From IMG/VR virus record IMGVR_UViG_3300012979_000040, positions 7,757 through 71,756 of that record: a DNA stretch of 64,000 nucleotides. One strand, 5' to 3'. The stretch is from a virus (taxonomy: Duplodnaviria > Caudoviricetes). Below the pieces are notes generated by a model. That model saw only the letters and a list, made by a program, of their open reading frames with translations. It was not told the origin of the DNA and did no database searches. Of this stretch, positions 35-50,700 are shown piece by piece (within the stretch, counting starts at the first letter, position 1; every line of letters starts with the position of its first letter). A program made the translations under genes and the position numbers.

Positions 35-241
35 ATGAGAACTGTGTTCGAATCATCTAGGTATTATAAAGCCAAGGATGCTAAGCATCTAAAGAAATGG
101 TCACGTAAAGATTATAGTGACACACTTATTAGTAAAGCTAATGCTTCTAATAATGTAGCTAAAATATATTTTGAGGATTCTTATGCGTATAATCCAATTA
201 CGAATAAGATAGAGGAGGTTAAATATGAATCAAATATATAA
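35..241 (+). CDS. hypothetical protein (68 aa)
   Basis: ORF packed against the next gene (17-nt overlap); no recognisable motif. Confidence 0.5.
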   Translation: MRTVFESSRYYKAKDAKHLKKWSRKDYSDTLISKANASNNVAKIYFEDSYAYNPITNKIEEVKYESNI

Positions 242-602
242 ACCAGGTACATTAGTTACAGCTTTGTATAAATCTTTTGATGGTACAAAGTTGCCTGGAA
301 TATTTCTAATACTATATGATGAGGCACTAGACCCTAGACATAACTTTGATTGTAATGTTGTAGGTGTTAAGTGTACTACATCACATGCTGTTGTAGGTAA
401 CTATACAATAGCACTAGACCCAGAGGAAATCTCTGAGTTAGATAATGCATCTATCGCTGCATGCTCTAAGCTGCAGACGTTGGATAAATCAAAGATAGGT
501 AAAGTAATATGTCAGTTACCTAGCCACGTTTATACAAAGTTTTATAAAGAGTATACCGACTTTGCAAACGAGGTTGATAGACAAATGAAAGGAGGATTAT
601 AA
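225..602 (+). CDS. PemK/MazF-fold protein, probably catalytically divergent
   Basis: RBS GAGGAGG; pattern G-x-LV...K-x-P-x-x-FLIL...NVVGVKCTT...L-x-x-x-S-x-x-x-CSKLQTLDKSKI-x-K-x-I-x-x-L matches the PemK layout; the usual K-x-RP reads KLPG. Confidence 0.6.
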   Translation: MNQIYKPGTLVTALYKSFDGTKLPGIFLILYDEALDPRHNFDCNVVGVKCTTSHAVVGNYTIALDPEEISELDNASIAACSKLQTLDKSKIGKVICQLPSHVYTKFYKEYTDFANEVDRQMKGGL

Positions 603-603
603 G

Positions 604-1053
604 ATGACATTAACTGATGAACAAAAGATATTCTTAGCTTGGTTAAACAAGACATCTAAGATTCGTTATTATGAAATGGTTATCTGTAAAGATTTCAATG
701 GAGATAAATCTTCTCCACTTCATGGTGTTGGCCATGTTGCATTTAGAATCTTTATTGATCCAAGTTCATACTTACATTGTGTATTTTCTAATGAAGAAGA
801 TACAATGTATGTTACTGAGTATCATTGTACAACTAAGCGTATACCTAGTACTCAGGTAGGATTTATTAATAGATACTTTAGTAAGTATAGATTAAACTCT
901 GGACTTGTTAAAGGTGTCTTTAATAATTCTAAACAAATCTACATTAACTATAAAGACTTTATTAAAATTGTAGATAGAATTTATGATGGAGATTTTTATT
1001 CTCGTGGTTCGATGGATAAAGATAGTTATCATAGAGCAGGAGGTTTATACTAA
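604..1053 (+). CDS. hypothetical protein (149 aa)
   Basis: RBS AGGAGG, directly after the upstream stop. Confidence 0.75.
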   Translation: MTLTDEQKIFLAWLNKTSKIRYYEMVICKDFNGDKSSPLHGVGHVAFRIFIDPSSYLHCVFSNEEDTMYVTEYHCTTKRIPSTQVGFINRYFSKYRLNSGLVKGVFNNSKQIYINYKDFIKIVDRIYDGDFYSRGSMDKDSYHRAGGLY

Positions 1054-1298
1054 TGAAAACTAAATGGTCTAAACTTCATGCTGAGTATAATGAGAAGAGT
1101 AAAGCTATCATCTTTGATGATAGTATCTTCTCTCATATACCAAACCATACTTATTATATGTGTAAGGAACTTGCATTAGATAATAAGTTGGATGTACAAA
1201 AAGTAATCTACTCTAACTATAAAGATAGAGAGTATAGATTAGAAGAATTAAGAGGCGTGTTTGACTGGGAAGATATTAATAAGAAAGGAAGGAATTAA
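1053..1298 (+). CDS. hypothetical protein (81 aa)
   Basis: TAATG coupling, RBS GGAGG. Confidence 0.7.
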   Translation: MKTKWSKLHAEYNEKSKAIIFDDSIFSHIPNHTYYMCKELALDNKLDVQKVIYSNYKDREYRLEELRGVFDWEDINKKGRN

Positions 1299-1300
1299 AT

Positions 1301-1720
1301 ATGGAATTAAAAGAAATTAAAAGAATTGAAGATGAAGGGACAATTAAAGAACAATCTAAAGAGATTAGATTAGAAGGAGGATTAACTCTTAAGAGAACTG
1401 GTGAAACTTTAATTAAGAGATCAATCCCTTGGTTTGAATCTCTTGAGGATGATATGAGTGTTGGAGAACAACTTGCTTTAGATATGGGTGGAACTATATA
1501 TAAAGCTAAGAAGAAAGAATCCAGTTCTCATAAGAGGAAATCTGGTGTTACTGAGGCAGCTGTAATAGAGTTGCTTAAGGATAAAGGTATGACTCAATAT
1601 CTAAAGGAAGCAGTTAATACAAATAAGCTTTATAAAGATTATGATTCCGGGGTATTAACTGATGCTGATGTTAGAGATTGTTTCGAAAGACTAATTGAAG
1701 AAAAATTAGATATAAAATAA
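1301..1720 (+). CDS. hypothetical protein (139 aa)
   Basis: RBS AAGGAAGGA; Lys/Glu-rich. Confidence 0.75.
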   Translation: MELKEIKRIEDEGTIKEQSKEIRLEGGLTLKRTGETLIKRSIPWFESLEDDMSVGEQLALDMGGTIYKAKKKESSSHKRKSGVTEAAVIELLKDKGMTQYLKEAVNTNKLYKDYDSGVLTDADVRDCFERLIEEKLDIK

Positions 1721-1746
1721 TATAAGGAAAAGGATGGTAAATAATT

Positions 1747-3627
1747 ATGAGTAAGAAATATAGTTTAACTAAAGTTGCTGAGGTTTTCTTAAATGATAAT
1801 AGAAGAAAGTCTTGGTCATTATTTGTGAGAGGACAGATAGCACAGCGTGTAGTTGTGTTGGCTGCTCTTGATAATGGATGTCGTACTTATTATGATTATT
1901 ATAATGGATTAACTATTTCATTAGGTAAGACATTCTATAGAGATATTTTTGGATTAGATGAAGAGGTAGACCCTCTTGATCTTAAGACATATGTGTATTC
2001 ACATCTTGCTAAGATTTATATTGGTGTATTCTATCATGAGTTTTTTCACTTAAGATATACTGATATGGATTATGAAAAAGATCTTTTAAGAAAGCTTGAT
2101 AGTAGGGTTATAGAATTAGTACATACTATCTTTAATATCTTAGAAGATGTTACTATAGAAAACTCTGGAGTTCAGGATTATCCTAGCTCTAGACGTTTCA
2201 TAGACGAACTATCTAAGTCACACTTTCAAGAAAGGGCAATAGATGCTGCGTCTAATCTTATCACTAATCACCCAGATACTGTTGATGCCTTAATAAGTTT
2301 CTTGTTATTGTATGCTAGAGGCTATGATATGTCTAAGCTACCACAATATAAGTTCTTTGAAGATAACAAAGAGCTTATTAAGTGGGGTATAGCTCAATGT
2401 CTAAGCGAGAATTTTCCTCGTCTAAGACATAGAAAGCAAATAGCACTTGCATTACAATTACTTAAACTTATTAATGGCGAAGAGTTTGATAAGGATAAAG
2501 TATCTGAAGGCGATATAAATACAAGAGTATCTGGAGTACCAAGATCTGGTACTGGTGATATGTCTACAGTAATTAAAGGTATCACACAAACTGATGGAGG
2601 TGTATATAACTCAACAGGTAATAAACCTATTGAAGCTAATACTTATGACCCATCAGCAACTGCTAATATGGATAATGTGGAAGGAAAAGCAGAACCTAAA
2701 CAAGTCAAGGCATCTCGCGGTGATAATGATATGATGAATATAGATGCATCAGCCATGAGTTCTGATGTAACTCAGCAATGTATTGAGACAATAGCTAATG
2801 ATGATCCTGTTACACATTATGCACATTCAGTTGAAAGATTGGATGCTTATGTTGACACATCTGGCTATGCTCCATCTTATCGTGATGTTAAGAATAAGTT
2901 TAGTAAACTTATTAACAGTGTTACTGGAACTATTCGTAAGATGAAAGCACATAATATAGCATCTTATAGAAGGAATCAATCTCGTGGTATTATTGATATC
3001 AAAGCTGTTATAAATAATAAACCAACTAATAAGAGTTTCATGAGAGTATTGAATCCTGGTAGAGAACCTGACCCAGTGTTCTGTGTAGTTGTAGATAACT
3101 CTGGTTCAATGTCTGGTAGAAAAGCCACACTTGCAGGTGAAGCTTGTATAGCATTAAGTGAATCTTTAAATAGTCTTGGTATAAGTTTTGGTGTATTTGC
3201 TTTTACCGAAGGTAGAAGTTGTGTAACTATAACTTTAAAAGATTATAAAGATATCTATGATAAGGTTAAATATAATTTAACTTTATTTACCAATAATATA
3301 CATTGTTCAGAATGTTGTACATATATGGGTAACATTGATGAAGTTAACATAAGATATCTTAGAGATCAGTTAATACATCAACCACATTCAGATAAGATAA
3401 TGATTGTTATAAGTGATGGTGCTACTTGTGGTGACTGGAAGGAACTTAAGAGAGTAGCAGATGGTATGGAAGCTAGAGGTATCAGAGTTCTCGGCATTGG
3501 TATCTATGATAGAAATGTTGAGAAGATATACAAGAACCATATCATCTTGAGAGACCAAAAGGATTTGGAATCTCTACCAGCATTCTTAAATCAGTATCTT
3601 ATCAAGATGTATAATGGAGGTAAATAA
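1747..3627 (+). CDS. CobT-like protein: N-terminal HEXXH metallopeptidase-like domain plus C-terminal VWA domain
   Basis: FYHEFFHLRYT followed by NILEDVTIE; MIDAS motif VVDNSGSMSG, later VISDG. Confidence 0.85.
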   Translation: MSKKYSLTKVAEVFLNDNRRKSWSLFVRGQIAQRVVVLAALDNGCRTYYDYYNGLTISLGKTFYRDIFGLDEEVDPLDLKTYVYSHLAKIYIGVFYHEFFHLRYTDMDYEKDLLRKLDSRVIELVHTIFNILEDVTIENSGVQDYPSSRRFIDELSKSHFQERAIDAASNLITNHPDTVDALISFLLLYARGYDMSKLPQYKFFEDNKELIKWGIAQCLSENFPRLRHRKQIALALQLLKLINGEEFDKDKVSEGDINTRVSGVPRSGTGDMSTVIKGITQTDGGVYNSTGNKPIEANTYDPSATANMDNVEGKAEPKQVKASRGDNDMMNIDASAMSSDVTQQCIETIANDDPVTHYAHSVERLDAYVDTSGYAPSYRDVKNKFSKLINSVTGTIRKMKAHNIASYRRNQSRGIIDIKAVINNKPTNKSFMRVLNPGREPDPVFCVVVDNSGSMSGRKATLAGEACIALSESLNSLGISFGVFAFTEGRSCVTITLKDYKDIYDKVKYNLTLFTNNIHCSECCTYMGNIDEVNIRYLRDQLIHQPHSDKIMIVISDGATCGDWKELKRVADGMEARGIRVLGIGIYDRNVEKIYKNHIILRDQKDLESLPAFLNQYLIKMYNGGK

Positions 3628-3812
3628 TGGATGTTCCAGTAGAATATGTTGTAATCATGTTAGATATAACTGATACAGAAACATATGAGTACTTCACTGA
3701 TAAGCGTAAAGCTTTGAAGTATGCAAGAGAATATAGATATGCATATAAATCTATTGCTGTTAAGGAAATAGATTATATAAATAATAATGAAGAAATTATA
3801 TGGGAGGATTAA
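3627..3812 (+). CDS. hypothetical protein (61 aa)
   Basis: TAATG coupling, RBS GGAGG. Confidence 0.65.
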   Translation: MDVPVEYVVIMLDITDTETYEYFTDKRKALKYAREYRYAYKSIAVKEIDYINNNEEIIWED

Positions 3813-3813
3813 A

Positions 3814-4098
3814 ATGAAAGTAAATGCATTAAGACATGAATACAGAGTAGATGCCTACACTGTAGATGTTCCAGTAACTGTTATGAAGATAGATGGACAA
3901 ACATTCTATCACATACAGTCAGAAGATATTGAAGGAGGTACACCATTGTTGTGTACCCCTCTCAAATCTTATACTACAATTCCAAAGAAAGCTTGGAATG
4001 CTAAGATTAAATATAAAGGTCTTCATTGGATATTACATTTAGGTAATTCAACAAGAAGACTATATCAAGAGGAGGTTGATTCTTTATATGACGAATAA
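3814..4098 (+). CDS. hypothetical protein (start moved to ATG 3814)
   Basis: RBS GGGAGG before 3814. Confidence 0.65.
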   Translation: MKVNALRHEYRVDAYTVDVPVTVMKIDGQTFYHIQSEDIEGGTPLLCTPLKSYTTIPKKAWNAKIKYKGLHWILHLGNSTRRLYQEEVDSLYDE

Positions 4099-4378
4099 TA
4101 AAGAAGAGTTATTAGAAGCTGTGATGTACTTCCCAGCTAGACCTAAACAAATATTTATAAATCCAAATAGAGATGAGGATTTTACTGATGTTCGTTATAG
4201 TTTCTTATCAGGTAAGGAACGTAATGTTAAAACTAAACTTGATGTTATTCAAGATTCAGAGTTTAAACCTGATCATCAAGCATTGTTTAGTGCTAATCAA
4301 TTACAAACTGGAGAGATAGTTGTAGTTAGAGTACATCCAGCTGATAGTTTAATAAGTATAGAAAGAAGGAGAAGTTAA
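4088..4378 (+). CDS. hypothetical protein (start moved to ATG 4088)
   Basis: RBS GGAGG upstream; packed between neighbours. Confidence 0.65.
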   Translation: MTNNKEELLEAVMYFPARPKQIFINPNRDEDFTDVRYSFLSGKERNVKTKLDVIQDSEFKPDHQALFSANQLQTGEIVVVRVHPADSLISIERRRS

Positions 4379-4379
4379 T

Positions 4380-4577
4380 ATGAATAGTTGTTTTGAAACT
4401 AATAAAGAAGAATTTACAAAGGCAGAGGTTGAAGAAATTATAAAAGCAATAGAGAATGGTGCTAATAATATCATACATGATTTAGCACACAGAGAGAAAG
4501 TTGCTACTAGAATAGCAATGCTTAGTCTTATTGTAGCTACCATATCTACAATGACTATATTCCTAAGGTTAGGATAA
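4380..4577 (+). CDS. small protein with C-terminal hydrophobic segment
   Basis: RIAMLSLIVATISTMTIFL looks like one transmembrane helix. Confidence 0.6.
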   Translation: MNSCFETNKEEFTKAEVEEIIKAIENGANNIIHDLAHREKVATRIAMLSLIVATISTMTIFLRLG

Positions 4578-4597
4578 GAAAGGAAGGAGAATCAAAT

Positions 4598-5164
4598 ATG
4601 GGACAAAGATTAAATTTAGAAATAAGAAAGAAAGGTAAAGTATTAGCTAATGCATATTATCATTGGTCAGCATATACAGCTGATTCATTCAGGCTTATTA
4701 ATATAGCTTATGATTATATTTCTATGAATCATAACGAAGATGATTTAATGTTAGCTGTTCATGCCTTAGAATATACTGGTGCTGGCATGGAAGAGTGTGA
4801 ACTTACAGAGGTCTATAAACAACGTAAGTATGCAGGTGTAGAATTTAAGAAAGCTAAAGATAGGAATGAAGGACTACTTGCTATCTCTGAGAAAGGTATT
4901 GAAAGTACTATTCAATGGGCTGAAGAGACTGCTATCATAGATATTACAGACCCAAAGAATGTTAAGTTTAACTTCTGGGTAGTCTGGGCAGATGATGAAG
5001 ACTATTATATAGAGAATGATAAGAATGAATCAGATGTCATAATTGATTATGACTTTGATCCTGAAGAAGATATGACTTATATGCAGTTATATTCTTATGT
5101 TAAAGATTTAACTGATGGTAATGTAGTTAGATACTCAGGTAGAGTATTCAGGGAGATAGCATAA
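4598..5164 (+). CDS. conserved-looking phage hypothetical protein (MGQRL...AYYHWSAYT)
   Basis: strong RBS AGGAAGGAG; acidic C-terminus; function unknown. Confidence 0.8.
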   Translation: MGQRLNLEIRKKGKVLANAYYHWSAYTADSFRLINIAYDYISMNHNEDDLMLAVHALEYTGAGMEECELTEVYKQRKYAGVEFKKAKDRNEGLLAISEKGIESTIQWAEETAIIDITDPKNVKFNFWVVWADDEDYYIENDKNESDVIIDYDFDPEEDMTYMQLYSYVKDLTDGNVVRYSGRVFREIA

Positions 5165-5706
5165 TGGAACATAAAAGTGTATTAATGAATCATAAAGATA
5201 CTGCTGTTGATATGACATGCAATGGTAAGTGTTCTAATTGTGGAGGATGTTGTAATCCTTGGAACCCTATCACTAACGAAGAGATAGAAACAATAAAGAA
5301 ATATATAAAGGAAAATAATATTAAGTATATACCTATGGTACCTGAAGGTAATGATATATACTTTGATTGTTGTTTCCATGATAGGAAGAATAAGAAGTGT
5401 CTTATCTATCCAGTAAGACCAGAAGTATGTCGTTCTTTCTGTTGTAATCTTAACAAGAGAAAGATTAATCGTAATAAATATTATTATGATAGACGTGCTG
5501 ATGTAAATGGTAGACACTTGGATAAGTTCTATCCATTTGACTTATTATTCTTTGATGACCCTAGAACATTGTTCCACTTTATTATGGATGTGTACCATCC
5601 ACAAAGCCCTGAACAATTAGAAAGGATACTATTGTATCATGGTCATAAAGATATTGTGGAAGCAATAAAGAATGGAAATATTGTATTAGATTGGAGTGAT
5701 AAATAA
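5164..5706 (+). CDS. YkgJ-family cysteine-cluster (CxxCxxCC) protein
   Basis: CSNCGGCC ... CCF...CLIYPVRPEVCRSFCC. Confidence 0.85.
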   Translation: MEHKSVLMNHKDTAVDMTCNGKCSNCGGCCNPWNPITNEEIETIKKYIKENNIKYIPMVPEGNDIYFDCCFHDRKNKKCLIYPVRPEVCRSFCCNLNKRKINRNKYYYDRRADVNGRHLDKFYPFDLLFFDDPRTLFHFIMDVYHPQSPEQLERILLYHGHKDIVEAIKNGNIVLDWSDK

Positions 5707-6005
5707 TGATTAATATGTTTATGTTAGTCGGAAGAACTGAGTTGATTACTGATGATTATATTCAGATATGTTTTACTGATAATAATCAAAAGGAAATACA
5801 TGCTAGAGTTTATATAGTAGGTTCTGATTCATTTAAATTAAATGTTAGAGATAATCTAGAAATAGGTGGAGTTGTAGGTGTTAAAGGACATCTTGGTATT
5901 ACTGAAGATGATAAAGCATTAAAACTTATTGGAGAAAAGTTTACATTCTTAGGTAAGTCTGGTTCAGTATCAGATACAAGAGGAGAGGAAGTAGAAGATG
6001 AATAA
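5706..6005 (+). CDS. ssb: short OB-fold single-stranded DNA-binding-like protein
   Basis: MIN-x-x-x-LVGR ... G-x-VVGVKG-x-L ... EKFTFL resembles bacterial SSB. Confidence 0.65.
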   Translation: MINMFMLVGRTELITDDYIQICFTDNNQKEIHARVYIVGSDSFKLNVRDNLEIGGVVGVKGHLGITEDDKALKLIGEKFTFLGKSGSVSDTRGEEVEDE

Positions 6006-6390
6006 TATGTATAAGAAAGTTTTAGTTCTTGGTTTACAAGCTGGCGATAATGTACAGATTATAACAAATAAAAAGAAGGAACTAATCGCTGTTAGATTTC
6101 TTCTTAATAGAAATGAGTTTATATCTGTTAGTTGGTATCCAGAACTAGAGGATAAGGTGAAAGTTATGGGAGGTAAACAATCCCGTAACTATATGTCACC
6201 TACACCTAGAGTATCTATCATAGATGAATACTTTCCAAGGGTTCGTAAACCTAAGGAACAATTTATTGTGGTAGATTTTTCTGAAGTTAATACAGCTTTA
6301 GCTAACCTACCAGCTTATACCACACCTTATGTAGTAGACCCATCTAGAAATCCAGTTTATCCTGGATATATTGGGGAGGTAATTTGGTAA
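5998..6390 (+). CDS. hypothetical protein (130 aa)
   Basis: overlapping, packed ORF. Confidence 0.7.
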   Translation: MNNMYKKVLVLGLQAGDNVQIITNKKKELIAVRFLLNRNEFISVSWYPELEDKVKVMGGKQSRNYMSPTPRVSIIDEYFPRVRKPKEQFIVVDFSEVNTALANLPAYTTPYVVDPSRNPVYPGYIGEVIW

Positions 6391-6749
6391 TGAAATTAAC
6401 AAGTGGAAAGTTTCTGGAGATATTAAATTCAATAGATCCAGATCCCCAATTACTTGCGAAGATAGTTGTTGATACAATGAAGCGTATGCCTAGTGCATAT
6501 GCTTGGCAACTATCACAGCAATTATATATGGAATATTTCTATGATGGTCCTACTATCATAGTAACAAACAATCTTACTGGTGTGGTTAGAAGGTTTGCTA
6601 ATGAAAAAGATATCTTAGTATATCTTAACAATTTAGGTTATAAGTGTGACTTAACTGGAGTTAAGCGTGCTGTAACTTCTCGAGCTGTTGATTATAATAA
6701 TCATAAGTTCGAACCAAGCGAAAGAAAAGAGATTACTTATTTTGAGTAG
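6384..6749 (+). CDS. hypothetical protein, possible NUMOD1-like C-terminal DNA-binding region
   Basis: last gene of the + block; converges on and overlaps the GroEL stop. Confidence 0.6.
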   Translation: MVMKLTSGKFLEILNSIDPDPQLLAKIVVDTMKRMPSAYAWQLSQQLYMEYFYDGPTIIVTNNLTGVVRRFANEKDILVYLNNLGYKCDLTGVKRAVTSRAVDYNNHKFEPSERKEITYFE

Positions 6750-8295
6750 TCTCTTTCATTATTAATGTATTAGTTCTAAGATATGCACAAGCAATTGAGC
6801 CTGCATTCTTTAACGCTTCATCTATAGATAGATAACTATCTAAGATACCAGCATTTTTTAGATTCACTAGGACCCCTCTAGTTACATCTATACCATGTAC
6901 ACGGTCCCCTACATTTTTTGAATCTATAATTTCTTTGTCGCCCGCCGATATTTTTACACCTGCGTTCTCACATATAGTTCTCATTGGAGCATCAAGCACA
7001 TCTCTAAGAACACAATCAGTACTTAGATTCTTCTTAACATTAACTAAAGCTTTACCCCCACCAAGTACGATACCAAACTTGAAAGCTTTTCTTACAGCTC
7101 CGATAGCATCGTCTAATTTCAGTGCAAGTATCTTAAACTCAGTCACAGTAGGTACACCAACTTTTATTTTAACAATACCATTCTGTAATGATCCCAACCT
7201 TCTTTCGTATAATACACGATCAACTTGGTTAAGTTTGTAACGATTCTTGTTAAGCTTATCTCTATACACTTTGATTCTTCCTTTAACTTCATCATTCATT
7301 TCCAAACTGAATACAGTCTTGTCTACCTCTACACATACATGCTTACATATTCCACAGTGTTCGTAACCATATTCTCCAACTCCCGAGCTGGCATCTTGAA
7401 CTATCCCACCAGTTACTGCAGCACAGTCCATGTATACGTCATCCATCTTCGCTTCATTAACGAACACAAATTGGAAATTAAATTTATTCTTTATTAGAGT
7501 ATCAATAAGAATTCTAAGTGTGTTCGGATTGAAGTTCGGATTCAATATAAATAACCATGGATCCCCAACTTTCTCTCCTGGGATTCCTGCAAAGAATTTA
7601 TTGATTCCAGCTTGGGTCATGATCCCTTCCTTCATTAACACAACGTGACAGTCATCAACTTCCCACTTCTCACCATCAGGACATAACCTACGCATAGCAT
7701 CAGTCATGTAACCTGACTCCATTGTGTAACCATTTGTATGCTCTATCTTCATACCCATGTTATCACGATCATGTTCAATAAGTATGTTCATGTCACGGCC
7801 TGCAAGCTCATAAGCTTGTTTCACTATAGACCCAACTTCAGGTATCTTAGTAGATATAGTAGCAATGTCATATACATACTTCTTCCCCATACGCATCTTC
7901 TCACGACTAAGTAACTTCCTTATGATCTTAATCTCAATGTCTATCATATCAGCTACAACTTGTGGATGTAACCCCTCTTCGATCTTAGCACATCCTAAAT
8001 TATAGATCTCATCTGTTAATAATATAGTAAGAGTTGTTCCATCCAACGCTTCCTTCTCTGTATTTGATGCAGCTTCGATCATATCCATTGCAACCATACG
8101 TTTGAATCCATCCATCTTTGCAGCTTCACGTGCAACAGTAACACCATCATCTGTAAGCGTAGGCTTGTCAAAGTCCTGATTGATCGCAACATATAATCCC
8201 TTTGCACCCATGGTAGGTACAACTAAATCTCTTACCTCTCTGAATGTTTCACGTATTAAGCTTCTACATTCTTGTCCTTTGATATAGCTAAGCAT
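6733..8295 (-). CDS. groEL: GroEL-like chaperonin (520 aa)
   Basis: PTMGAKG, LTDDGVTVARE, ALDGTTL (GDGTTT variant), LDDAIGA (catalytic Asp), GIVLGGGKAL, KNAGILD; no GGM tail. Confidence 0.95.
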   Translation of the reverse strand: MLSYIKGQECRSLIRETFREVRDLVVPTMGAKGLYVAINQDFDKPTLTDDGVTVAREAAKMDGFKRMVAMDMIEAASNTEKEALDGTTLTILLTDEIYNLGCAKIEEGLHPQVVADMIDIEIKIIRKLLSREKMRMGKKYVYDIATISTKIPEVGSIVKQAYELAGRDMNILIEHDRDNMGMKIEHTNGYTMESGYMTDAMRRLCPDGEKWEVDDCHVVLMKEGIMTQAGINKFFAGIPGEKVGDPWLFILNPNFNPNTLRILIDTLIKNKFNFQFVFVNEAKMDDVYMDCAAVTGGIVQDASSGVGEYGYEHCGICKHVCVEVDKTVFSLEMNDEVKGRIKVYRDKLNKNRYKLNQVDRVLYERRLGSLQNGIVKIKVGVPTVTEFKILALKLDDAIGAVRKAFKFGIVLGGGKALVNVKKNLSTDCVLRDVLDAPMRTICENAGVKISAGDKEIIDSKNVGDRVHGIDVTRGVLVNLKNAGILDSYLSIDEALKNAGSIACAYLRTNTLIMKETTQNK

Positions 8296-10387: not shown

Positions 10388-10413
10388 GTCATCCTCACCT
10401 CTCTTCTAACTTA

Positions 10414-10442
10414 ATTATACCACTTTCTACTATATAAGACAA
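10414..10442 (-). promoter_or_regulatory. sigma-A/70-type promoter for the GroES-MazG-GroEL block
   Basis: TTGTCT-17-TATAAT with TG extension. Confidence 0.75.
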
Positions 10443-14910: not shown

Positions 14911-15134
14911 AATAAATATTCCTCCTTTAATATATTATTTTCTTCATCGATCACACCATGCTTCCTGGCAACACGTGCCATGATAGCATCTGATCTGTTG
15001 TTGGGATCGAAATCCCCTCTAGATATTTTTCTGGTGATGTATACAAGACTTCTATCTAGATGATTCTCCTTTGTATCATACTTGATCTTTTTCTTTTTGG
15101 GTCTCTTCACCCTCAGTTTCAATGGATCTCTCAT
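14883..15134 (-). CDS. basic hypothetical protein (start moved to ATG 15134)
   Basis: RBS AGGTGA; a promoter lies inside the longer ORF-track N-terminus. Confidence 0.6.
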   Translation of the reverse strand: MRDPLKLRVKRPKKKKIKYDTKENHLDRSLVYITRKISRGDFDPNNRSDAIMARVARKHGVIDEENNILKEEYLLCKTKRTKS

Positions 15135-15150
15135 TTTATCACCTATATAA

Positions 15151-15191
15151 ATTATACCATAGTAGAAAGTTTTACTCAATAATGGTATAAT
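15151..15191. promoter_or_regulatory. overlapping divergent sigma-A promoters
   Basis: - strand TTGAGT(15174-79)-17-TATAAT(15151-56); + strand TAGAAA(15163-68)-17-TATAAT(15186-91); both TG-extended. Confidence 0.75.
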
Positions 15192-15210: not shown

Positions 15211-15381
15211 ATGGGAGAAACTAAAGAGCACATTAAAGAATGGATCGAGAGAGAAGTACATGAAATCCACACGTCATATTATGCAGACATGGATGACTGT
15301 GAACTTCTACAATTATTAGAGCATGCACATAAGTTGCAAAGGTATATAGAAAAATTATTAGGGGGTGAGTATAATGACTAA
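15211..15381 (+). CDS. small hypothetical protein (56 aa, MGETKEHIKEW...; below the ORF-track cutoff)
   Basis: RBS AAGGAG after the + promoter; stop overlaps the TerS start. Confidence 0.65.
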   Translation: MGETKEHIKEWIEREVHEIHTSYYADMDDCELLQLLEHAHKLQRYIEKLLGGEYND

Positions 15382-16012
15382 GCGTGTGTTTGTACCTGAG
15401 ATAATCGAAACAAAAGAAAATCTCCTAAGTGCATTGCGTACTGGAGATATTAAAACTAGTAAATATAATTTATTAAATGAGGAAGAGAAACTCTTCGTAG
15501 AACTTGTAGTCTTCGGTGACTATACTGCTGAGCAAGCTGTTAAGTCTATCCGTGGAGCTAGCTATGTTAGAGGCCAAGGTACCAGAATGTGTGCCCGTCC
15601 TAATGTGGCCGAAGCTTTAGAAGAATTATCATATAAGAAAAATAAAAAGTTCATGGCTGAGATCTCTAGTGCTAGAGACATGGCCTTAAGAAAGTTACAG
15701 TACATAATGACTACAACAGAGGATGAGAGTGTGGCATTGGCTGCAGCTAAAGTTATACTTGATAGATCAGAGAAAGCTACTACAGAGAAAGAGGCCAGCA
15801 GTGTGGTTAATGCTATCCAGTTTAATATCCAAGCTGCTCCTAGAGTATTAGATAATCCAATGGATCCGAAGGTGGATACTGAGAAGGTAATTGAAATAGC
15901 TGGGATGGATGATCTTGAATCAAGTAAGCAAAGTAAATTAGAAAAAGCCACAGCAGGAACTGGGCTAGACTTTGTACTTAGTTACGAGCAAGTTGATAAT
16001 TATAAAGGATAG
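15374..16012 (+). CDS. terS: terminase small subunit-like protein
   Basis: LNEEEKLFVELVV...TAEQAV...GTRMCARPNVAEALEEL HTH-like signature, then a helical oligomerisation-like region. Confidence 0.7.
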   Translation: MTKRVFVPEIIETKENLLSALRTGDIKTSKYNLLNEEEKLFVELVVFGDYTAEQAVKSIRGASYVRGQGTRMCARPNVAEALEELSYKKNKKFMAEISSARDMALRKLQYIMTTTEDESVALAAAKVILDRSEKATTEKEASSVVNAIQFNIQAAPRVLDNPMDPKVDTEKVIEIAGMDDLESSKQSKLEKATAGTGLDFVLSYEQVDNYKG

Positions 16013-16021
16013 TGGTATAAT
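15993..16021 (+). promoter_or_regulatory. promoter of candidate sRNA-1
   Basis: TTGATA-17-TATAAT with TG extension, overlapping the terS 3' end. Confidence 0.7.
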
Positions 16022-16025
16022 TAAT

Positions 16026-16080
16026 GTAGTGATTGACTGCATCACTATATCATTCCTTTGGAGGCGAAAGCCTCTTTTTT
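16026..16080 (+). ncRNA. candidate small RNA 1 (~55 nt)
   Basis: promoter, 5' hairpin TAGTGAT/ATCACTA, ATCATTCCTTT anti-SD-like segment, then a terminator; no ORF. Confidence 0.5.
16060..16080 (+). terminator. Rho-independent terminator
   Basis: GAGGC-GAAA-GCCTC then TTTTTT. Confidence 0.9.
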
Positions 16081-16087
16081 ATTGCAC

Positions 16088-16150
16088 TAAAAAAGAGCCG
16101 TAGCTCTAAGGAGAATCAAATATAAAAAATATGTTCTCTAATCTGGTGCA
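16088..16150 (-). ncRNA. candidate small RNA 2 (~62 nt)
   Basis: promoter TTGCGA(16179-84)-17-TATAAT(16156-61) with TG extension; terminator AGAGC-TACG-GCTCT-TTTTT; contains 16 nt antisense to 4584-4599. Confidence 0.6.
16089..16107 (-). terminator. Rho-independent terminator (C-UACG-G loop)
   Basis: AGAGC-TACG-GCTCT then a T run on the - strand. Confidence 0.85.
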
Positions 16151-16164
16151 ATTTAATTATAACA

Positions 16165-16268
16165 TAAAAAGATTGCCTTCGCAATCCTTTTATGTGTTTG
16201 AAGATGACATTAGATTATCTCACAAACGAACAAGACCATTCAACCAAGAGCTGGATATTTTCATATCC
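16165..16268 (-). ncRNA. candidate small RNA 3 (~103 nt)
   Basis: TTGACA(16298-303)-17-TATAAT(16275-80); predicted +1 at G16268 begins the hairpin GGATAT-GAAA-ATATCC; ends in a terminator. Confidence 0.55.
16166..16187 (-). terminator. Rho-independent terminator, also ending the replication operon
   Basis: GATTGC-GAAG-GCAATC then TTTTT; T run also present on the + side. Confidence 0.85.
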
Positions 16269-16274
16269 ATTATA

Positions 16275-16303
16275 ATTATATCTTAAATATAATTACTTGT
16301 CAA
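16275..16303 (-). promoter_or_regulatory. consensus sigma-A promoter of candidate sRNA-3
   Basis: perfect TTGACA-17-TATAAT overlapping the primase stop region. Confidence 0.85.
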
Positions 16304-18272
16304 CAAACACAGTCCCACGCTTGTATACCTTGAATTCCATGCCAACTTCAGTTTCAAACCTAGTTGATTTAACTGTTTTAAAGTTATTAACATCACACCA
16401 TACAGAATATTCTGCATATAATTCTTCAATTGGTTTACTCTTGATATAAGTATCATCAAGATTCTTAGCAGATATCCAACTAAGTACACCTGAGTTATCT
16501 ATTCTATAGATCTTCATCATCTCAGTTACACATGTAGGTTCTATAAAAGTATGGGTAGTCTTCAATACTTGACTGATAGCGAGCACACTTTTATATGCTA
16601 TGTATTCTAGGTCTTTCATAAGCCTGTCTTTGAAATCCATACCATCAACAAGACTAACTTTAGTTAGGTCTGCATTGAATGGTATAATACATAGTCTTCT
16701 ATAGAAACCACTAGTTGTGTCTGGTGTCCTAGGTAATGTGTTAGCACTGAACATTAACGTAGCGAAGACTGTATCATTGAATGGGTCTTTGTTCTTACGC
16801 TCTATAGTTATCTCATCCCCACCGACTATCTGTTTAAATAAGTCTGAGTCTTTAAGAGGTTGACTAGAGATATCTCCACTAAGAGATACGAGTTTGTTAT
16901 GTAACATACCAACTCTGAACTTCTCTCCCAAATCTTTGAAGTCTAAGCCAGTGCAGTTCTTTGCTCCACATATAGCTTTTATAACATCTAAGTATGTACT
17001 CTTACCATTTCTACCTTCTCCGATTAGTAGGAATGCCTTATGAAGTTCAGGTGTTTTCAAGAATGAATAACCTATTGCTTCATATAAGAGTTGTTCTACT
17101 TCCTTATCCCCACAAGTTGCTGTCTTAAAGAACTCGTCAGCAGTGGCACCCGTAGCACTTGGGTTATACTTGACGTTCATCCTAATAGTTTCAAGATGAT
17201 CAGGATGATGCGGGGTTAATGTTAGTGTTCTTATATTTAAGATCCCATTCTCGAACACAATATTGAATGGGTTCTTATTAAAGTCTGATAAATGTAATTC
17301 CAAAAATGTTTCTAGGAAATTAAGTACTTCCTTCTTCTGGAATTCTTTTAATGAAGGACACAGTTGTGTCATTATGCCTTTAATGTAATCATTATTCGAA
17401 ACATAAATACCTAACTTCTCATCATAGAAGTATAAGTTTTTTGATTTACTATCTTTTTTAATCTTAAGTAAGTCAATAAGATACTTACCCATAGTGTCAT
17501 GTAAGAAGACACCATTGTTTGAAAAGAACTTTTCTTCAGGAGTATCTTCATTGTTACTATCCCTTAGCATAGTAGCATCCATTTCATTCTCACTTAATGG
17601 TGTTGTTGCTACATAGCTATTGATTAAACGTATGCATTCAGCCCTTTGCTCTGGACTTAGATTGGTTTTCTTCAACCTCCACAGATGTCTGTTATAACTA
17701 TCATTCCTTGCATCTTGCATGGGGTATGAGATAAAGTTGTCATCCTTCTTATTACCTTTAGTAAATATTGGTGTTAGAAAGAATGGCAACTCTTCAATAC
17801 CATTATAATATATAACTCTTCTGTCTTGTAACTTTGCACTCCTATTTATTTTAGGATTCTTAAATGGTGTAGTAATAAAACTCTTACCATTAGCGTGCAC
17901 TATAGTATCACATACAGCCCCCACTGCTGTGATATTATTTACTGTCTTATTATTATAAGTACTCTTTGCATAGATATGAATACCTCTAGTAGTTTTAACT
18001 ACAAGAACTTTTTCTTTCCGGTCCGTTATTATCTTGTAGACTATCTTAGCTGTAGTCATATCATCTATATCAATTATAATCCAACCTTCTGGAATAATCC
18101 AACCTATTTCCATATAAGGATCTGTGTTTGCTAGGTTTACTATCTCTTCAAAAGATACAGGGGTTAAGGAACCCTTAGCTTTTGGTGCACCTCCTGATAG
18201 TTGCACATACGATTTGGCACCTTTGTTGTACAACTTCTCAAAATCTAAAAATGTTAGCATCAATCTTATCAA
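16293..18272 (-). CDS. primase-helicase (AEP/Prim-Pol N-terminus, D5/P4-family SF3 helicase)
   Basis: IIIDIDD and TTRGIHIY motifs; IVFENGIL (D5_N); Walker A GEGRNGKST; IERKNKDPF. Confidence 0.92.
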   Translation of the reverse strand: MIRLMLTFLDFEKLYNKGAKSYVQLSGGAPKAKGSLTPVSFEEIVNLANTDPYMEIGWIIPEGWIIIDIDDMTTAKIVYKIITDRKEKVLVVKTTRGIHIYAKSTYNNKTVNNITAVGAVCDTIVHANGKSFITTPFKNPKINRSAKLQDRRVIYYNGIEELPFFLTPIFTKGNKKDDNFISYPMQDARNDSYNRHLWRLKKTNLSPEQRAECIRLINSYVATTPLSENEMDATMLRDSNNEDTPEEKFFSNNGVFLHDTMGKYLIDLLKIKKDSKSKNLYFYDEKLGIYVSNNDYIKGIMTQLCPSLKEFQKKEVLNFLETFLELHLSDFNKNPFNIVFENGILNIRTLTLTPHHPDHLETIRMNVKYNPSATGATADEFFKTATCGDKEVEQLLYEAIGYSFLKTPELHKAFLLIGEGRNGKSTYLDVIKAICGAKNCTGLDFKDLGEKFRVGMLHNKLVSLSGDISSQPLKDSDLFKQIVGGDEITIERKNKDPFNDTVFATLMFSANTLPRTPDTTSGFYRRLCIIPFNADLTKVSLVDGMDFKDRLMKDLEYIAYKSVLAISQVLKTTHTFIEPTCVTEMMKIYRIDNSGVLSWISAKNLDDTYIKSKPIEELYAEYSVWCDVNNFKTVKSTRFETEVGMEFKVYKRGTVFVDK

Positions 18273-46191: not shown

Positions 46192-47749
46192 CTGCTACTC
46201 CCCAAGAATCTATCTCTCCACTGTCTAACCTTTCTTCCTCTTCATCTAACTTACGTTGCCATTTAGTACGGGTATCTTCTTCATACTCTTCTAATCCTAT
46301 AGGTGCAATGTCAGATGAATAGAATACTAAGAACAAACCATATGAGTCAATGGCGTGGTCTGCACAACCTTTGTTGATCATACCGATATTGAAATCATCA
46401 TACACAGCATTATCCATTTCTTCTATCAAACTATTAACAGATGTAGATATTCTAAACCTGTGTGTACCATCTATCATCTTAAGTCTAGTAGACGAATGGA
46501 TTTTATCATAACGCATTTGTACTTTACCTTTACCAGATTCAACACCTATAGGGTTTAATCCATAGTAATCAAATACTTCTGATTTCATTTCACCTATTAT
46601 TCTACCAGTATCATCTCTATATCTATCACCACCACGATACATATCATGTGGTAATAAAGTGGCTGTTATATAGTAACCCATTTGTTTAGACTTATCTGCT
46701 ATTGCTCTAACAAAGTCTTCAAATATTAGATCTTGCCCATACATATCATCGAATGTTATAACCCTACCATCTTCAAATACTGCGTGCCATAAGGCTGAGT
46801 GATAAGATGGTTTGTAACCCCAGTCTATAGATATGTATACATCAAAGTTTTGTGGGCCATTGGTTAATTCAAGGAAAGCTTCTCTACCATTTATATACTG
46901 TTCTTCAGGAACATCAAACATCCTACCAGCTACAACATCCCAGTTACCATATAAATCCATTTGCTTTCTTGCTTCATCTTGCATCTCTAACATAGCTGCG
47001 TATGATGCATTTAAGAATGGATTATCTTTATATGATGCTGGTATAAATCTAGTAATAACTTTGATCTTACCTTTAGCTGTGTCCATCCATTCAATGTGGT
47101 CTTTTGTTTCAATAGGAGCATTAGTGTATGGATCATACAATGTAACTGTAGGATCAATAAATCTACGCTTAACCCATTTGTGACCTTTACCTCCAGGGTT
47201 ACAACCAAGTACAACCTTTGTAGGAATTCTTAGTTTCTCGCCTGTATAAGGATTGGTTTGAATTGTAGAACGAACTGTTGATAACAGATAGTTAAATGTT
47301 CTTTCATCTTGTTTAGTAACTTCATCAATAGCTAAGTAGTGAAATTCCCAACCTTGTTGGCTTAATGCTTCACGGTAATCAGCTACACGTTGAAGTGTGA
47401 TGTAACTTCCATTAGGAAAGATTATAGAACGGGAAGGGTACCAAGAGGTACTCTTCTCTCTATATTCATATATTGTTTGCCCACCTGCTTTTTGTGGAAA
47501 CAATGTAGGCAACTTATCTAGGAATGATTGTTTAACGGCATCCAGTTTCTCACGGATGATTATACATTTAGCTCCAGGATAAGTAGTGGCAAACATGAAG
47601 GCGTCAGCTAGAATACCTGCTGACTTACCTCCACCTCTCGAACCACCATAGAGAGTAATACATATATCCTCAAAGGAGCAAGGTGCATTGTGTAATAGCA
47701 CCTGCTTCTCGTGAGGTTGATAGCTTGGTGTGACAACTACCTTAGCCAT
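46172..47749 (-). CDS. terL: terminase large subunit
   Basis: YGGSRGGGKS Walker A, AIDEVT Walker B, GCNPGG motif III, ISIDWG nuclease, DHAIDS. Confidence 0.97.
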   Translation of the reverse strand: MAKVVVTPSYQPHEKQVLLHNAPCSFEDICITLYGGSRGGGKSAGILADAFMFATTYPGAKCIIIREKLDAVKQSFLDKLPTLFPQKAGGQTIYEYREKSTSWYPSRSIIFPNGSYITLQRVADYREALSQQGWEFHYLAIDEVTKQDERTFNYLLSTVRSTIQTNPYTGEKLRIPTKVVLGCNPGGKGHKWVKRRFIDPTVTLYDPYTNAPIETKDHIEWMDTAKGKIKVITRFIPASYKDNPFLNASYAAMLEMQDEARKQMDLYGNWDVVAGRMFDVPEEQYINGREAFLELTNGPQNFDVYISIDWGYKPSYHSALWHAVFEDGRVITFDDMYGQDLIFEDFVRAIADKSKQMGYYITATLLPHDMYRGGDRYRDDTGRIIGEMKSEVFDYYGLNPIGVESGKGKVQMRYDKIHSSTRLKMIDGTHRFRISTSVNSLIEEMDNAVYDDFNIGMINKGCADHAIDSYGLFLVFYSSDIAPIGLEEYEEDTRTKWQRKLDEEEERLDSGEIDSWGVAVEDDYF

Positions 47750-50700
47750 TCAAGATCACTCCTGTCTTTATAGTCTACTCCAGTATCATATGATGTAAGA
47801 TTGTAATCGTTACTCCATATACCCATTTCAGGGGATACGTGTACACTTACTCTGTCAAGATTCCAATCATTATATCTATCAAGCTTTTTGTTATAAGAAT
47901 ATGTTTTAGGATAGTACTTACCAGGATATATATTTGAGTATGGATAGTATGAAGAATAACTACTACCATAATAATTGTTGTTATAAGTCTTCTTGTATTT
48001 AGGTACATATACATCCTTTGTTTCTGTAGGGAATAATTTCTCTAACATTGGGTACATCTCTGATTCATATTCTATAGCTTGTTGTAATTTTAATTGTTCT
48101 GCTGGAGTTAGTGAGTTTATATAAGCTTGTCTATACTCTTTTAAAGTATTTAACTTTCTTATTATAGAGTTGTTATTTAATGCAGCTCTTAGTGTTGCTT
48201 CAGATACATCATTGTCATTGTATTCATGAGTTATATAGTTATATACAACTGTAGAACTTTCACGACCATTGATCATCTTTCTAAGAGTTTGATTAACTCT
48301 ATTAAAGTCATCTACGTCATAAGATCCATATTGAGAAGCGTAATGTCTGTTATAGTACAATTCATCAACACTAGCCATATCGTTTATGTCTAGGTCATAA
48401 TCATAACCTTTAATACCTCTACTAAACGCTTTCATATCTGTTATGAATGCATAGTAGTTAGAAGTATCTTTCTTCCAAGATTTCTGATTACCTAGATCAC
48501 TATTGATACCTTTAGTTAAACCTTTCCATAAAGATGTAAGGAATCCAGTATCTTGATCTGAGTATTTAGAATATTTGTTTTGATCTATAACATTATCTGC
48601 AATACCACTTCCTGTAAAGAATCCAAGGACTTTTCTCATACCGTTCTCAACATTAGTGTATTGGTATTTTTGTTTAGTGCTCATGAATGGATCAGCTATT
48701 TGATAAGGGTCACCACTGTCACCAAACATTTCTTGTCCTGTAACTATTTCAATAGGTAACTTAAGTACTGGGTTTAATCTAGAAAGTACGTTAGCTTTAA
48801 TCCAACCATAACCTTTTTTAGCTAATGTATCATTATACTCATTTGTTAATGGGTTAATATACATTTCTTTAATTTGGTATGCAGGATTTAATGAATCATA
48901 TACAACTGTAGGAGTTCCTCCGATAAGAGTACCAATAGGATCAAGTGTAACACCTTCTTCTATCCACTCTTCTTCAGTCTCTTCATCTACACCGTACATA
49001 TCACATACTGCTGTTATGATTGCATTTGATAATAATGATAATCCAACTACACCTAAGCTAGGCATTACAACTGTGTTATACCATTGTGTTGCATTGTTTT
49101 CAGTTATACCTTCTTGGAATAATCTTCCAACACTCATTGCATATGAACCAAGAGTTCTTGTTAAGTTCATAGGGAATGTTGCGAACATCATTATACCTGA
49201 TGTGTATTTAGATAAATAAGGGAAACCTCCAGGAGAACCAAGCATGTAATCCATGATGTACATAGCTTTATCTCTGTTATCTTTTATACCATCAATAGCA
49301 TTCTTGTTATAGTATTGAGAACCATACCAAGGTCTACCATTATCAAATGATTCTTTAGCTGTTAGATATATAGCGTATCTTCCAAGATGATTCTGTAAGT
49401 CTAACGGCTTAGTCATAAAGTCTGTAATCTTACTTAATATATCTGTACCCATATCTTCTGTAAAGTTGATTGGGTCTTTATTAGTTCCACCCCATAAACT
49501 AGGTTGACCTTCACGTATTAAGTAATCTTTTAAATCTTCAGGTATTGACTTACCTTTTGAACTTAAGGCTTGAGATATATCTTTACCAGCTCTAGCTATA
49601 TTAGGAATTGTATCGTAGTTAGATATAGCTCCCATAGCATAGTCTGAACCAGTATATCTTAAGAATCTACTTAGCATCTTAGCAGGTAATGCCATTTGTA
49701 TTCCTGCTGATGTTGTAGAAATTTTCTTAAATAATTTCATAACTCTTCCAGGAATCTTTCTGGTATATACCTTAGATGAAAGTTGATCTACTAAATCGTT
49801 TCGAGCAAGATAGATTTCTCCACTTAATGCTTTCTCTAGTACATATTGAGCAAACATTGTATCACTCTTACTATTGTAAGATAGTTCAATATTATCTTTC
49901 AAATATGATAGGGATCCGTCATATACTGGAGCAACTGATCCACCTCTTTGAATCTTTTGACCAAACTTATTTACAAGACTGTAACCTTCTTTTTCAAGAC
50001 CTGCTATATATTTAACAAGCTTGTCAGAAGATCTAGAAGAACATTCTATAATTCTTTGTGCAATCATTATCTGAGCCCACATAGCATTGTAAGTTTCTTT
50101 TGCTAATAGTCTAGTTGGTTCATTCACATATTGATCAACATTAGCCATACGATATATCTCAGATAGTGATGATACAACACCGTCTGAAGATGTTTCTGCA
50201 AGTTGTTGTCTTAATGATTCTGCCTTACCTCTTACTTCTCTGTAAGCTTCTAGTATAAGATCAGCACCATTCTTAGAAGTTTTTCTTAATCTGTATATAT
50301 CTAGGTCAGTATACATACTTGTTATCTCTAAGACTTTATCAGTTATTTCTGAATCAAGTGCATTATAAACTTTAAGATCTCCGAATGTTTCTGGTGCATC
50401 TATTATTTCAAATGCTTTGTTAACTATATCAACATTGTTGATTAAAGCTTTACCAGTATATTTACCAGTCAATGCATTGGAAATATTTTCAGCAGCTATA
50501 ACATTACTCATATCTCTAATAAGTTTTTCTGATCCTTCAAAGAAATTAAATATCATGTTTTGTTCAACTATGTTCTTATTACTAGATGGATCATATGCTT
50601 TAGAAATGCTTGATATCTTTTTAAGATTATTAAGTATCATGTTTTCTCTTGCTACTTTATCTTTAGGAACATATGGTGCCATCAGAATGTGGAATGAATC

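Follow-up and report, generated by a model that had tools for sequence, protein, structure and literature searches.

A predicted small RNA of a phage, encoded on the minus strand at positions 16088 to 16150 and here called sRNA-2, is conserved from promoter to terminator among the relatives of that phage and carries 16 nt that are perfectly complementary to the start region of a gene 11.5 kb away (gene 4598, named for its start position). The match is too long to be ascribed to chance, and the RNA is kept in relatives from which the match is gone. We tentatively favor the reading that sRNA-2 is an anti-Shine-Dalgarno (anti-SD) small RNA able to pair with several strong ribosome-binding sites (RBSs) of the phage or its host, with gene 4598 as an exceptionally good, lineage-specific, and possibly opportunistic target. 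On this reading, host RNA polymerase would produce an RNA of ~62 nt from a predicted extended -10 promoter; the UUCUCC anti-SD tract of that RNA and the AU-rich extension next to it, both in a weakly structured region, would mirror strong RBSs of the form AAGGAGAAnnAAAUAUG; and the RNA would most likely base pair with RBSs of this kind, in mRNAs of the phage or of the host, and so keep ribosomes from entering. By far the best site in this genome is the start region of gene 4598 (16/16 positions), and if sRNA-2 is expressed while the mRNA of that gene is present, translation of the gene would probably be dampened. Transcription of sRNA-2, its pairing in vivo, and any effect on translation are what we infer from the sequence; the pairing with gene 4598 appears to be lineage specific and is probably not the reason for which the RNA has been conserved.

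The window, by which we mean the whole stretch of 64,000 nt that was analyzed, corresponds to bases 7757 to 71756 of a 71.7-kb IMG/VR virus record and has a G+C content of 33.6%. Its RBSs are of the AAGGAG type and its predicted promoters are of the sigma-70 type with TGn-extended -10 boxes, a usage that, to judge from these motifs, is the one usually seen in phages of Gram-positive hosts; neither tRNA nor tmRNA genes were found in the window. By sequence comparison, the phage is a member of a ~72-kb family with many metagenomic relatives of about 70 to 72 kb, whose sample record names suggest a gut origin. There is no close isolate, the best primase matches among deposited phages being only about 32% identical; a DNA search of the phage record collection returned no close relatives, and searches of IMG/VR with single-protein patterns or exact motifs returned none. 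Relatives were gathered through protein look-ups in metagenome assemblies, one metagenome motif scan, and an alignment-based scan of IMG/VR, and the comparison set comprises about a dozen distinct related contigs (the L-numbered loci below). Synteny across the phage family includes a 5317-aa open reading frame (ORF; 47737-63690, minus strand), a Cpn60/GroEL-like gene (6733-8295, minus strand), and a CobT/VWA-like gene (1747-3627, plus strand), and upstream of the equivalent of the window, the relatives encode an AAA_5 ATPase and a protein with an NrS-1-like primase-polymerase helix-bundle domain.

Layout and conservation of the sRNA-2 unit

The sRNA-2 unit is the second cassette of a conserved array located around the gap (16013 to 16292) between two convergent genes, a small-terminase-like gene (terS; 15365-16012, plus strand; phrog_51) and a D5/DUF5906 primase-helicase gene (16293-18272, minus strand). 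This 300-bp primase-terS gap accounts for three of the window's dozen strongest promoter matches. For the cassettes, we retain the names given in the preliminary description: sRNA-3 and sRNA-2 on the minus strand and sRNA-1 on the plus strand. The upstream cassette, sRNA-3 (16165-16303, minus strand), combines a TTGACA-17-TATAAT promoter (16303-16275) with a predicted RNA of ~104 nt (about 16268-16165), and its terminator (16186-16171), a hairpin of the form GAUUGC-GAAG-GCAAUC followed by a U-run, contains the -35 element of sRNA-2. The convergent cassette, sRNA-1 (15993-16082, plus strand), has a predicted promoter at 15993-16021, an RNA of ~55 nt with a UUCCUUU tract, and a predicted terminator at 16060-16075. 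An extended promoter motif (GTGGTATAATTAA...) is common to 10406-10434 (minus strand), 16001-16029 (plus strand), about 15150-15179 (minus strand), and 15163 (plus strand), and its presence at several promoters of the window suggests a single promoter class serving a set of operons.

sRNA-2 itself (16088-16150, minus strand) had been described as an RNA made from a host polymerase promoter, and as a prediction this description is borne out, in that a unit running from promoter to terminator is retained in relatives and has the antisense stretch in a weakly structured region. The promoter, predicted by consensus, lies at 16156-16184 (minus strand) and consists of a -35 element TTGCGA (16184-16179), a 17-nt spacer, and a TGn-extended -10 element TATAAT (16161-16156). 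The body of ~62 nt would be expected to start near G16149 and to end within the T-run at 16093-16088, after a predicted intrinsic terminator (16094-16107, minus strand) in which an AGAGC-UACG-GCUCU stem-loop precedes U6. Directly 5' of the terminator is the seed, 5'-AUAUUUGAUUCUCCUU-3' (16108-16123, minus strand), which is the perfect complement of 4584-4599 and has the anti-SD sequence UUCUCC at its 3' end.

In the minimum-energy fold of sRNA-2, UUCUCCUU is mostly unpaired and the seed partly so; the consensus fold instead has UUCUC (16115-16111) and GAGAA (16138-16134) form a weak stem of 5 bp, with a loop that takes in the AU-rich 5' half of the seed. Weak alternative folds sequester part of the seed, and the z-score of the sRNA-2 fold is only -1.6. 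A search of the whole window against 4227 Rfam models gave no match at gathering score, and a search of 15950-16350 at E values of up to 10 gave only chance-level matches to unrelated families. The 5' end of sRNA-2, AUUGCAC (16143-16150), is the exact reverse complement of the GUGCAAU that lies beyond its U-run (16083-16090), and the two ends could pair if termination were leaky; L003 retains only 5 of these 7 bases.

Throughout the relatives compared, the -35 and -10 boxes of both minus-strand cassettes and their terminators are kept, and the -35 core and the GTTATAAT of the sRNA-2 promoter are invariant in all of those that were aligned. The body of sRNA-2 is 98 to 100% identical in L003/L004, L009/L010/L012, and L017, with no substitutions and at most one single-base indel, in lineages whose flanking primase and terS DNA is 85 to 94% identical and whose sRNA-1 region is 83 to 92% identical; over 63 nt, an identity of about 88% would predict ~7 changes. 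In L005, a shortened homologue of sRNA-2 keeps GCACCA, AGAGA, and AUUUnAUUCUCC, the last of which is the longest block common to sRNA-2 of the window and this diverged copy. Its terminator contains a compensatory G-C to C-G change (AGACC/GGUCU), and its seed is altered to AUUUUAUUCUCC, such that a start region matching it would read GGAGAAUAAAAU. Within its clade, sRNA-2 is probably a genuine noncoding RNA gene that would be transcribed as predicted and is under purifying selection; within so narrow a clade, part of the conservation could be due not to selection but to the entire 220-bp block having recombined recently.

The same DNA can also be read on the plus strand, where the AAGGAG at 16108 might serve as the RBS of a 51-codon ORF (16131-16286) or of an ATA start at 16122. 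An SD-like sequence is indeed followed there by an in-frame open frame, but the spacing from the SD to the ATG is 17 nt, and the ORF has no family match and sits downstream of a plus-strand terminator; we consider a functional plus strand to be extremely improbable. The ORF was rejected upon alignment, as it is broken by single-base indels in the L007-type sequences (in the sRNA-3 region) and has no counterpart in L005 or the other lineages.

The 16-nt match and its chance level

The identity on which the preliminary description was built is exact: the 16-mer AAGGAGAATCAAATAT occurs on the plus strand at both 4584-4599 and 16108-16123. The first copy spans the SD, the spacer, and the AT of the ATG at 4598. 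No further copy exists in the window at up to 2 mismatches or in the 71.7-kb record at up to 1 mismatch, and among 160 ORFs, gene 4598 is the top trans site for the seed. The similarity between the two copies ends exactly at 16 nt, and their flanks show no homology.

A blind census of the window for exact 16-mer repeats found two direct repeats and one inverted repeat, and none longer, against about 3 direct and about 3 inverted repeats in Markov-2 random sequences; the census is at random expectation, and a 16-mer repeat as such is therefore unremarkable. The same does not apply to a repeat that falls on a start region. In 3000 trials with AAGGAG fixed and its flanks shuffled, a run of at least 16 nt to one of 82 start regions came up once, and in 3000 trials with the 10 nt following a fixed AAGGAG resampled position by position from real spacers, such a run came up four times. 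The longest run common to any two of 56 real start regions (1540 pairs) is 13. Given these SD-fixed nulls and the 13-nt maximum, the match to the start region of gene 4598 is not a product of chance, even with three candidate RNAs taken into account; the earlier rough estimate of ~0.01 expected 16-mer matches anywhere in the window was about right. That an AT-rich intergenic sequence matches one start region among about 80 by pure coincidence would be in line with the repeat census, and the match was indeed found after the fact among several candidate RNAs, but with frequencies of only 0.03 to 0.13% in nulls that preserve the SD, and with no two real start regions sharing a run as long, we deem it very unlikely.

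A second match, between 16113-16128 and 227-242, agrees at 15 of 16 positions, as had been stated, and contains a perfect run of 12 nt (227-238, plus strand) in codons 1 to 5 of a PemK-fold gene. The proposal that this gene is a secondary target is not supported, since runs of 12 nt are common between the array and the genome and the match is at chance level; we regard it as background. When the pair was considered as a type I toxin-antitoxin system, the 12-nt run again proved to be at background frequency, and the site is kept in the L009 lineage but is coding sequence. Two further candidates were rejected: GAATCAAATAT, as a repeated DNA motif, is merely one of nineteen 11-mers that are present at least 4 times in the window, and the 11-nt site AAGGAGAATCA at 15071 (minus strand) is kept in relatives but is coding (T-K-E-N-H) and lies in no start region. 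A 12-nt match also links sRNA-3 (16201-16212) to the start of gene 604 (601-612), a length at which several chance matches exist between array and genome.

Gene 4598 and its start region in relatives

Gene 4598 (4598-5164, plus strand) encodes a 188-aa hypothetical phage protein (MGQRLNLEIRKKGK...) that has no Pfam or PHROG family and resembles unnamed viral clusters. L003, L007, L009, L012, L029, L034, and L035 have homologues with differing start regions. We compared the proposed target site (4584-4599, plus strand, comprising the SD, the spacer, and the AT of the start codon) across the window, L009, L003, L004, L012, L007/L034, L035, and L029. In the window, whose seed is the reference, the start region of the 188-aa gene reads AAGGAGAATCAAATATG and matches at 16/16 positions. 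L009 has an identical seed and the start region AAGGAGAATTAAATATG, which matches at 15/16, the single change resulting in a G·U pair. In L003, L004, and L012, the seed is again identical, and the start region reads TAGGAGGATGAAGTAATG, in which no perfect run reaches 11 nt; L007/L034, L035, and L029 have other cassettes and an unrelated start region, with no match. The duplex between the seed and the start region of the 188-aa gene is predicted at -24.3 kcal/mol in the window, -22.1 kcal/mol in L009, and -15.4 kcal/mol in L003/L012, the last value being no better than those predicted for other strong start regions of the window (-16.2 kcal/mol at 4380 and -17.3 kcal/mol at 225).

The altered start region accompanies a change in gene content, in that L003, L004, and L012 have, inserted directly upstream of the 188-aa gene, a 103-aa gene whose stop codon overlaps the ATG (TAATG), and the gene that now follows the 66-aa gene in these genomes has yet another start region. 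The insertion sits between the 66-aa and 188-aa genes (window 4380-4600 versus L003 17298-17620 and L012 17282-17604), with translational coupling. L009 and L012 have the same sRNA-2 with different target states, and because they are nearly identical around the array yet differ near 4598, the plus-strand cluster must be mosaic. The 16-mer of L009 has 1 change in 16 nt against 2 in the adjacent 44 nt, which is the same rate, and all three changes are C to T. Among the other lineages, no cassette has complementarity of 14 nt or more to start regions within the 21-kb loci, which include the homologous gene cluster.

The preliminary description had named co-variation of seed and target across related phages as a check on its proposal, and none is seen: the seed is invariant in L003/4, L009/12, and L017, while the target ranges from 15/16 in L009 to unrelated in L003, L004, and L012. 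With the RNA constant and the site free to vary, pairing with gene 4598 would not be what keeps sRNA-2 conserved, and to judge from these alignments, the RNA is unlikely to exist mainly for the dedicated control of gene 4598. The trans-repression of early genes that had been proposed is thus supported in part: the conserved RNA unit (as predicted) and the nonchance match to gene 4598 stand, whereas co-variation with the target and pairing with the PemK-fold gene are not supported.

Were sRNA-2 nonetheless devoted to repressing gene 4598 in trans, and in second place the PemK-fold gene, with the 16-nt complementarity as its selected function, this would account for a perfect match over both the SD and the start codon (p about 1e-3), for a predicted duplex that at -24.3 kcal/mol is well clear of those with all other start regions, and for the preservation of 15/16 positions in L009 with a G·U pair as the sole change. 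Such a role is possible for this genome and L009, but as a conserved function it is contradicted by L003, L004, and L012, in which an identical seed faces TAGGAGGATGAAGTAATG at -15.4 kcal/mol. The L009 target, moreover, drifts at the rate of the neighboring 44 nt, no other lineage has a cassette with a match of at least 14 nt to its own start regions, and the PemK 12-mer is background within coding sequence; we thus regard this explanation as unlikely. The comparison illustrates how little a striking and perfect match in a single genome says for a dedicated regulator when the RNA persists in genomes that lack the match.

An identity that is too long for chance and yet not maintained by covariation might also be a relic of descent, the 16-mer having been copied between the two places when a gene boundary recombined, or such a fragment having given rise to the body of the RNA, with no regulatory consequence; sRNA-2 would then be kept for protein binding, for a decoy role, or for the insulation of convergent transcription. 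The plus strand at 16108-16124 does resemble a start region in which ATA replaces ATG, close relatives show a mosaic gene order around 4598, and start regions of like design recur at gene boundaries in the phage family: AAGGAGAA-nn-AAAT-ATG is found at 4380, 4598, and 1301 in the window and at the 137-aa genes of L003 and L012, the start region before that of L003 being AAGGAGAATTAAATTATG. However, the similarity stops abruptly at 16 nt with no homology beyond it, the seed block is the best-conserved part of sRNA-2 between the window and L005, and a perfect 16-bp duplex would be hard to prevent if both RNAs coexist, and we hold a functionless relic to be improbable as well. As for the anti-SD RNA with several possible targets that we favor, the recurrence of these start regions speaks for it too, the seed being in effect antisense to a strong RBS and its AU-rich spacer; four of the five best predicted seed sites are in the plus-strand cluster at 225-6749, an enrichment that is not significant (p = 0.058, or 0.11 without gene 4598) and amounts to a trend only.

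Known antisense RNAs and the wider cassette array

Among trans-acting phage antisense RNAs that cover an RBS, the CI RNA of P4 is analogous to the c4 RNA of P1 and P7. The latter is a small phage RNA that pairs in trans around a distant RBS of a phage mRNA and blocks its translation (PMC12197685). sRNA-2 likewise matches a distant RBS of a phage mRNA, by predicted pairing, but it has a predicted promoter and terminator of its own, whereas c4 is processed from an operon transcript, and the phage described here shows no sign of an immunity region at the locus. In P1 and P7, the RNA and its target co-vary, which underlies heteroimmunity, unlike sRNA-2 and the start region of gene 4598; nor does sRNA-2 match any Rfam model, a collection that would include c4 if it is curated there. 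P22 sar and lambda OOP are small phage RNAs that act via perfect complementarity to a start region (PMC12197685); both overlap their target locus, whereas sRNA-2 and its complementary site are 11.5 kb apart and the strand opposite sRNA-2 encodes nothing conserved.

The pyrimidine-rich anti-SD small RNAs of Gram-positive bacteria (RsaE/RoxS, RNAIII, and SR1) use an exposed C/U-rich tract to pair with the SDs of several mRNAs. sRNA-2 resembles them in being short, in its predicted promoter and intrinsic terminator, and in its C/U-rich anti-SD tract, but differs in being phage encoded and one unit of a tandem array, in lacking any sequence or Rfam relationship to them, and in having UUCUCC with an AU-rich extension as its seed instead of UCCC/CCC loops. 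By its presumed mechanism, sRNA-2 is nearest to c4 and P4 CI and to the Gram-positive anti-SD RNAs, and it is a member of none of these families. To our knowledge, there has been almost no exploration of the small regulatory RNAs of virulent phages, especially those of uncultured gut phages with Gram-positive hosts. If expressed, sRNA-2 would be a straightforward case in which to test a phage RNA directed at an RBS, for which the relatives supply natural controls, namely, the same RNA with a perfect, a G·U, or a replaced target.

No description of such a small-RNA cassette array was found in the literature. The array is modular, with 2 to 4 tandem cassettes per lineage, and the terminator hairpin of each unit holds the -35 element of the next (TTGC..), followed by a T-run and a TGn-TATAAT box (L007, 5680-6000; L033, 5480-5910; also L015, L016, L018, and L020, and 16156-16186 in the window). 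Most cassettes have an AUUGC-like 5' end and a 5' hairpin with compensatory changes between L007, L033, and L034. In place of sRNA-2, L007, L015, L016, L018 to L020, and L033 to L035 have two or three other cassettes. In other lineages, too, the cassette adjacent to terS has a CU-rich, anti-SD-like tract just before its terminator, which reads CACUCCUUUCU in L019, CCUUCUUUCUUUCU in the L015 type, and, on the other strand, CUCUCCCUUCCU in L029; this apparent anti-SD pattern across lineages comprises only about 4 independent cassette types. The cassettes might together form a battery of small RNAs driven by host polymerase, the variable members of which (sRNA-2 and the CACUCCUUUCU and CCUUCUUUCUUUCU types) would mimic the 3' tail of 16S rRNA and mask strong RBSs on host or early phage mRNAs, as a global translation switch of a lytic phage with the seed extension tuned in each lineage (here to gene 4598); we view this broader scheme as speculative and rather unlikely.

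The whole array, and above all its near-invariant first cassette, sRNA-3, may be a more important object than the match of sRNA-2. No promoter of the window other than that of sRNA-3 is a perfect TTGACA-17-TATAAT, and the sRNA-3 core of ~75 nt is invariant in lineages in which the 3' end of the primase gene is only 73 to 77% identical. sRNA-3 belongs to no Rfam family and has no long complement in the phage, and a search of 185,579 species genomes of bacteria and archaea did not return its core, which indicates that it is no obvious copy of a host gene; so high a conservation of the sequence suggests that sRNA-3 has a conserved partner in the host, either an RNA or a protein. A 14-codon frame within sRNA-3 was rejected as coding, since it has a stop at codon 2 in L007, L018, and L019. 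Homologues of sRNA-3 lie at L007 5596-5695, L015 736-839, L019 1785-1885, and L029 11987-12098, and the diverged copy in L029 shows compensatory changes in both the 5' GNRA hairpin and the terminator.
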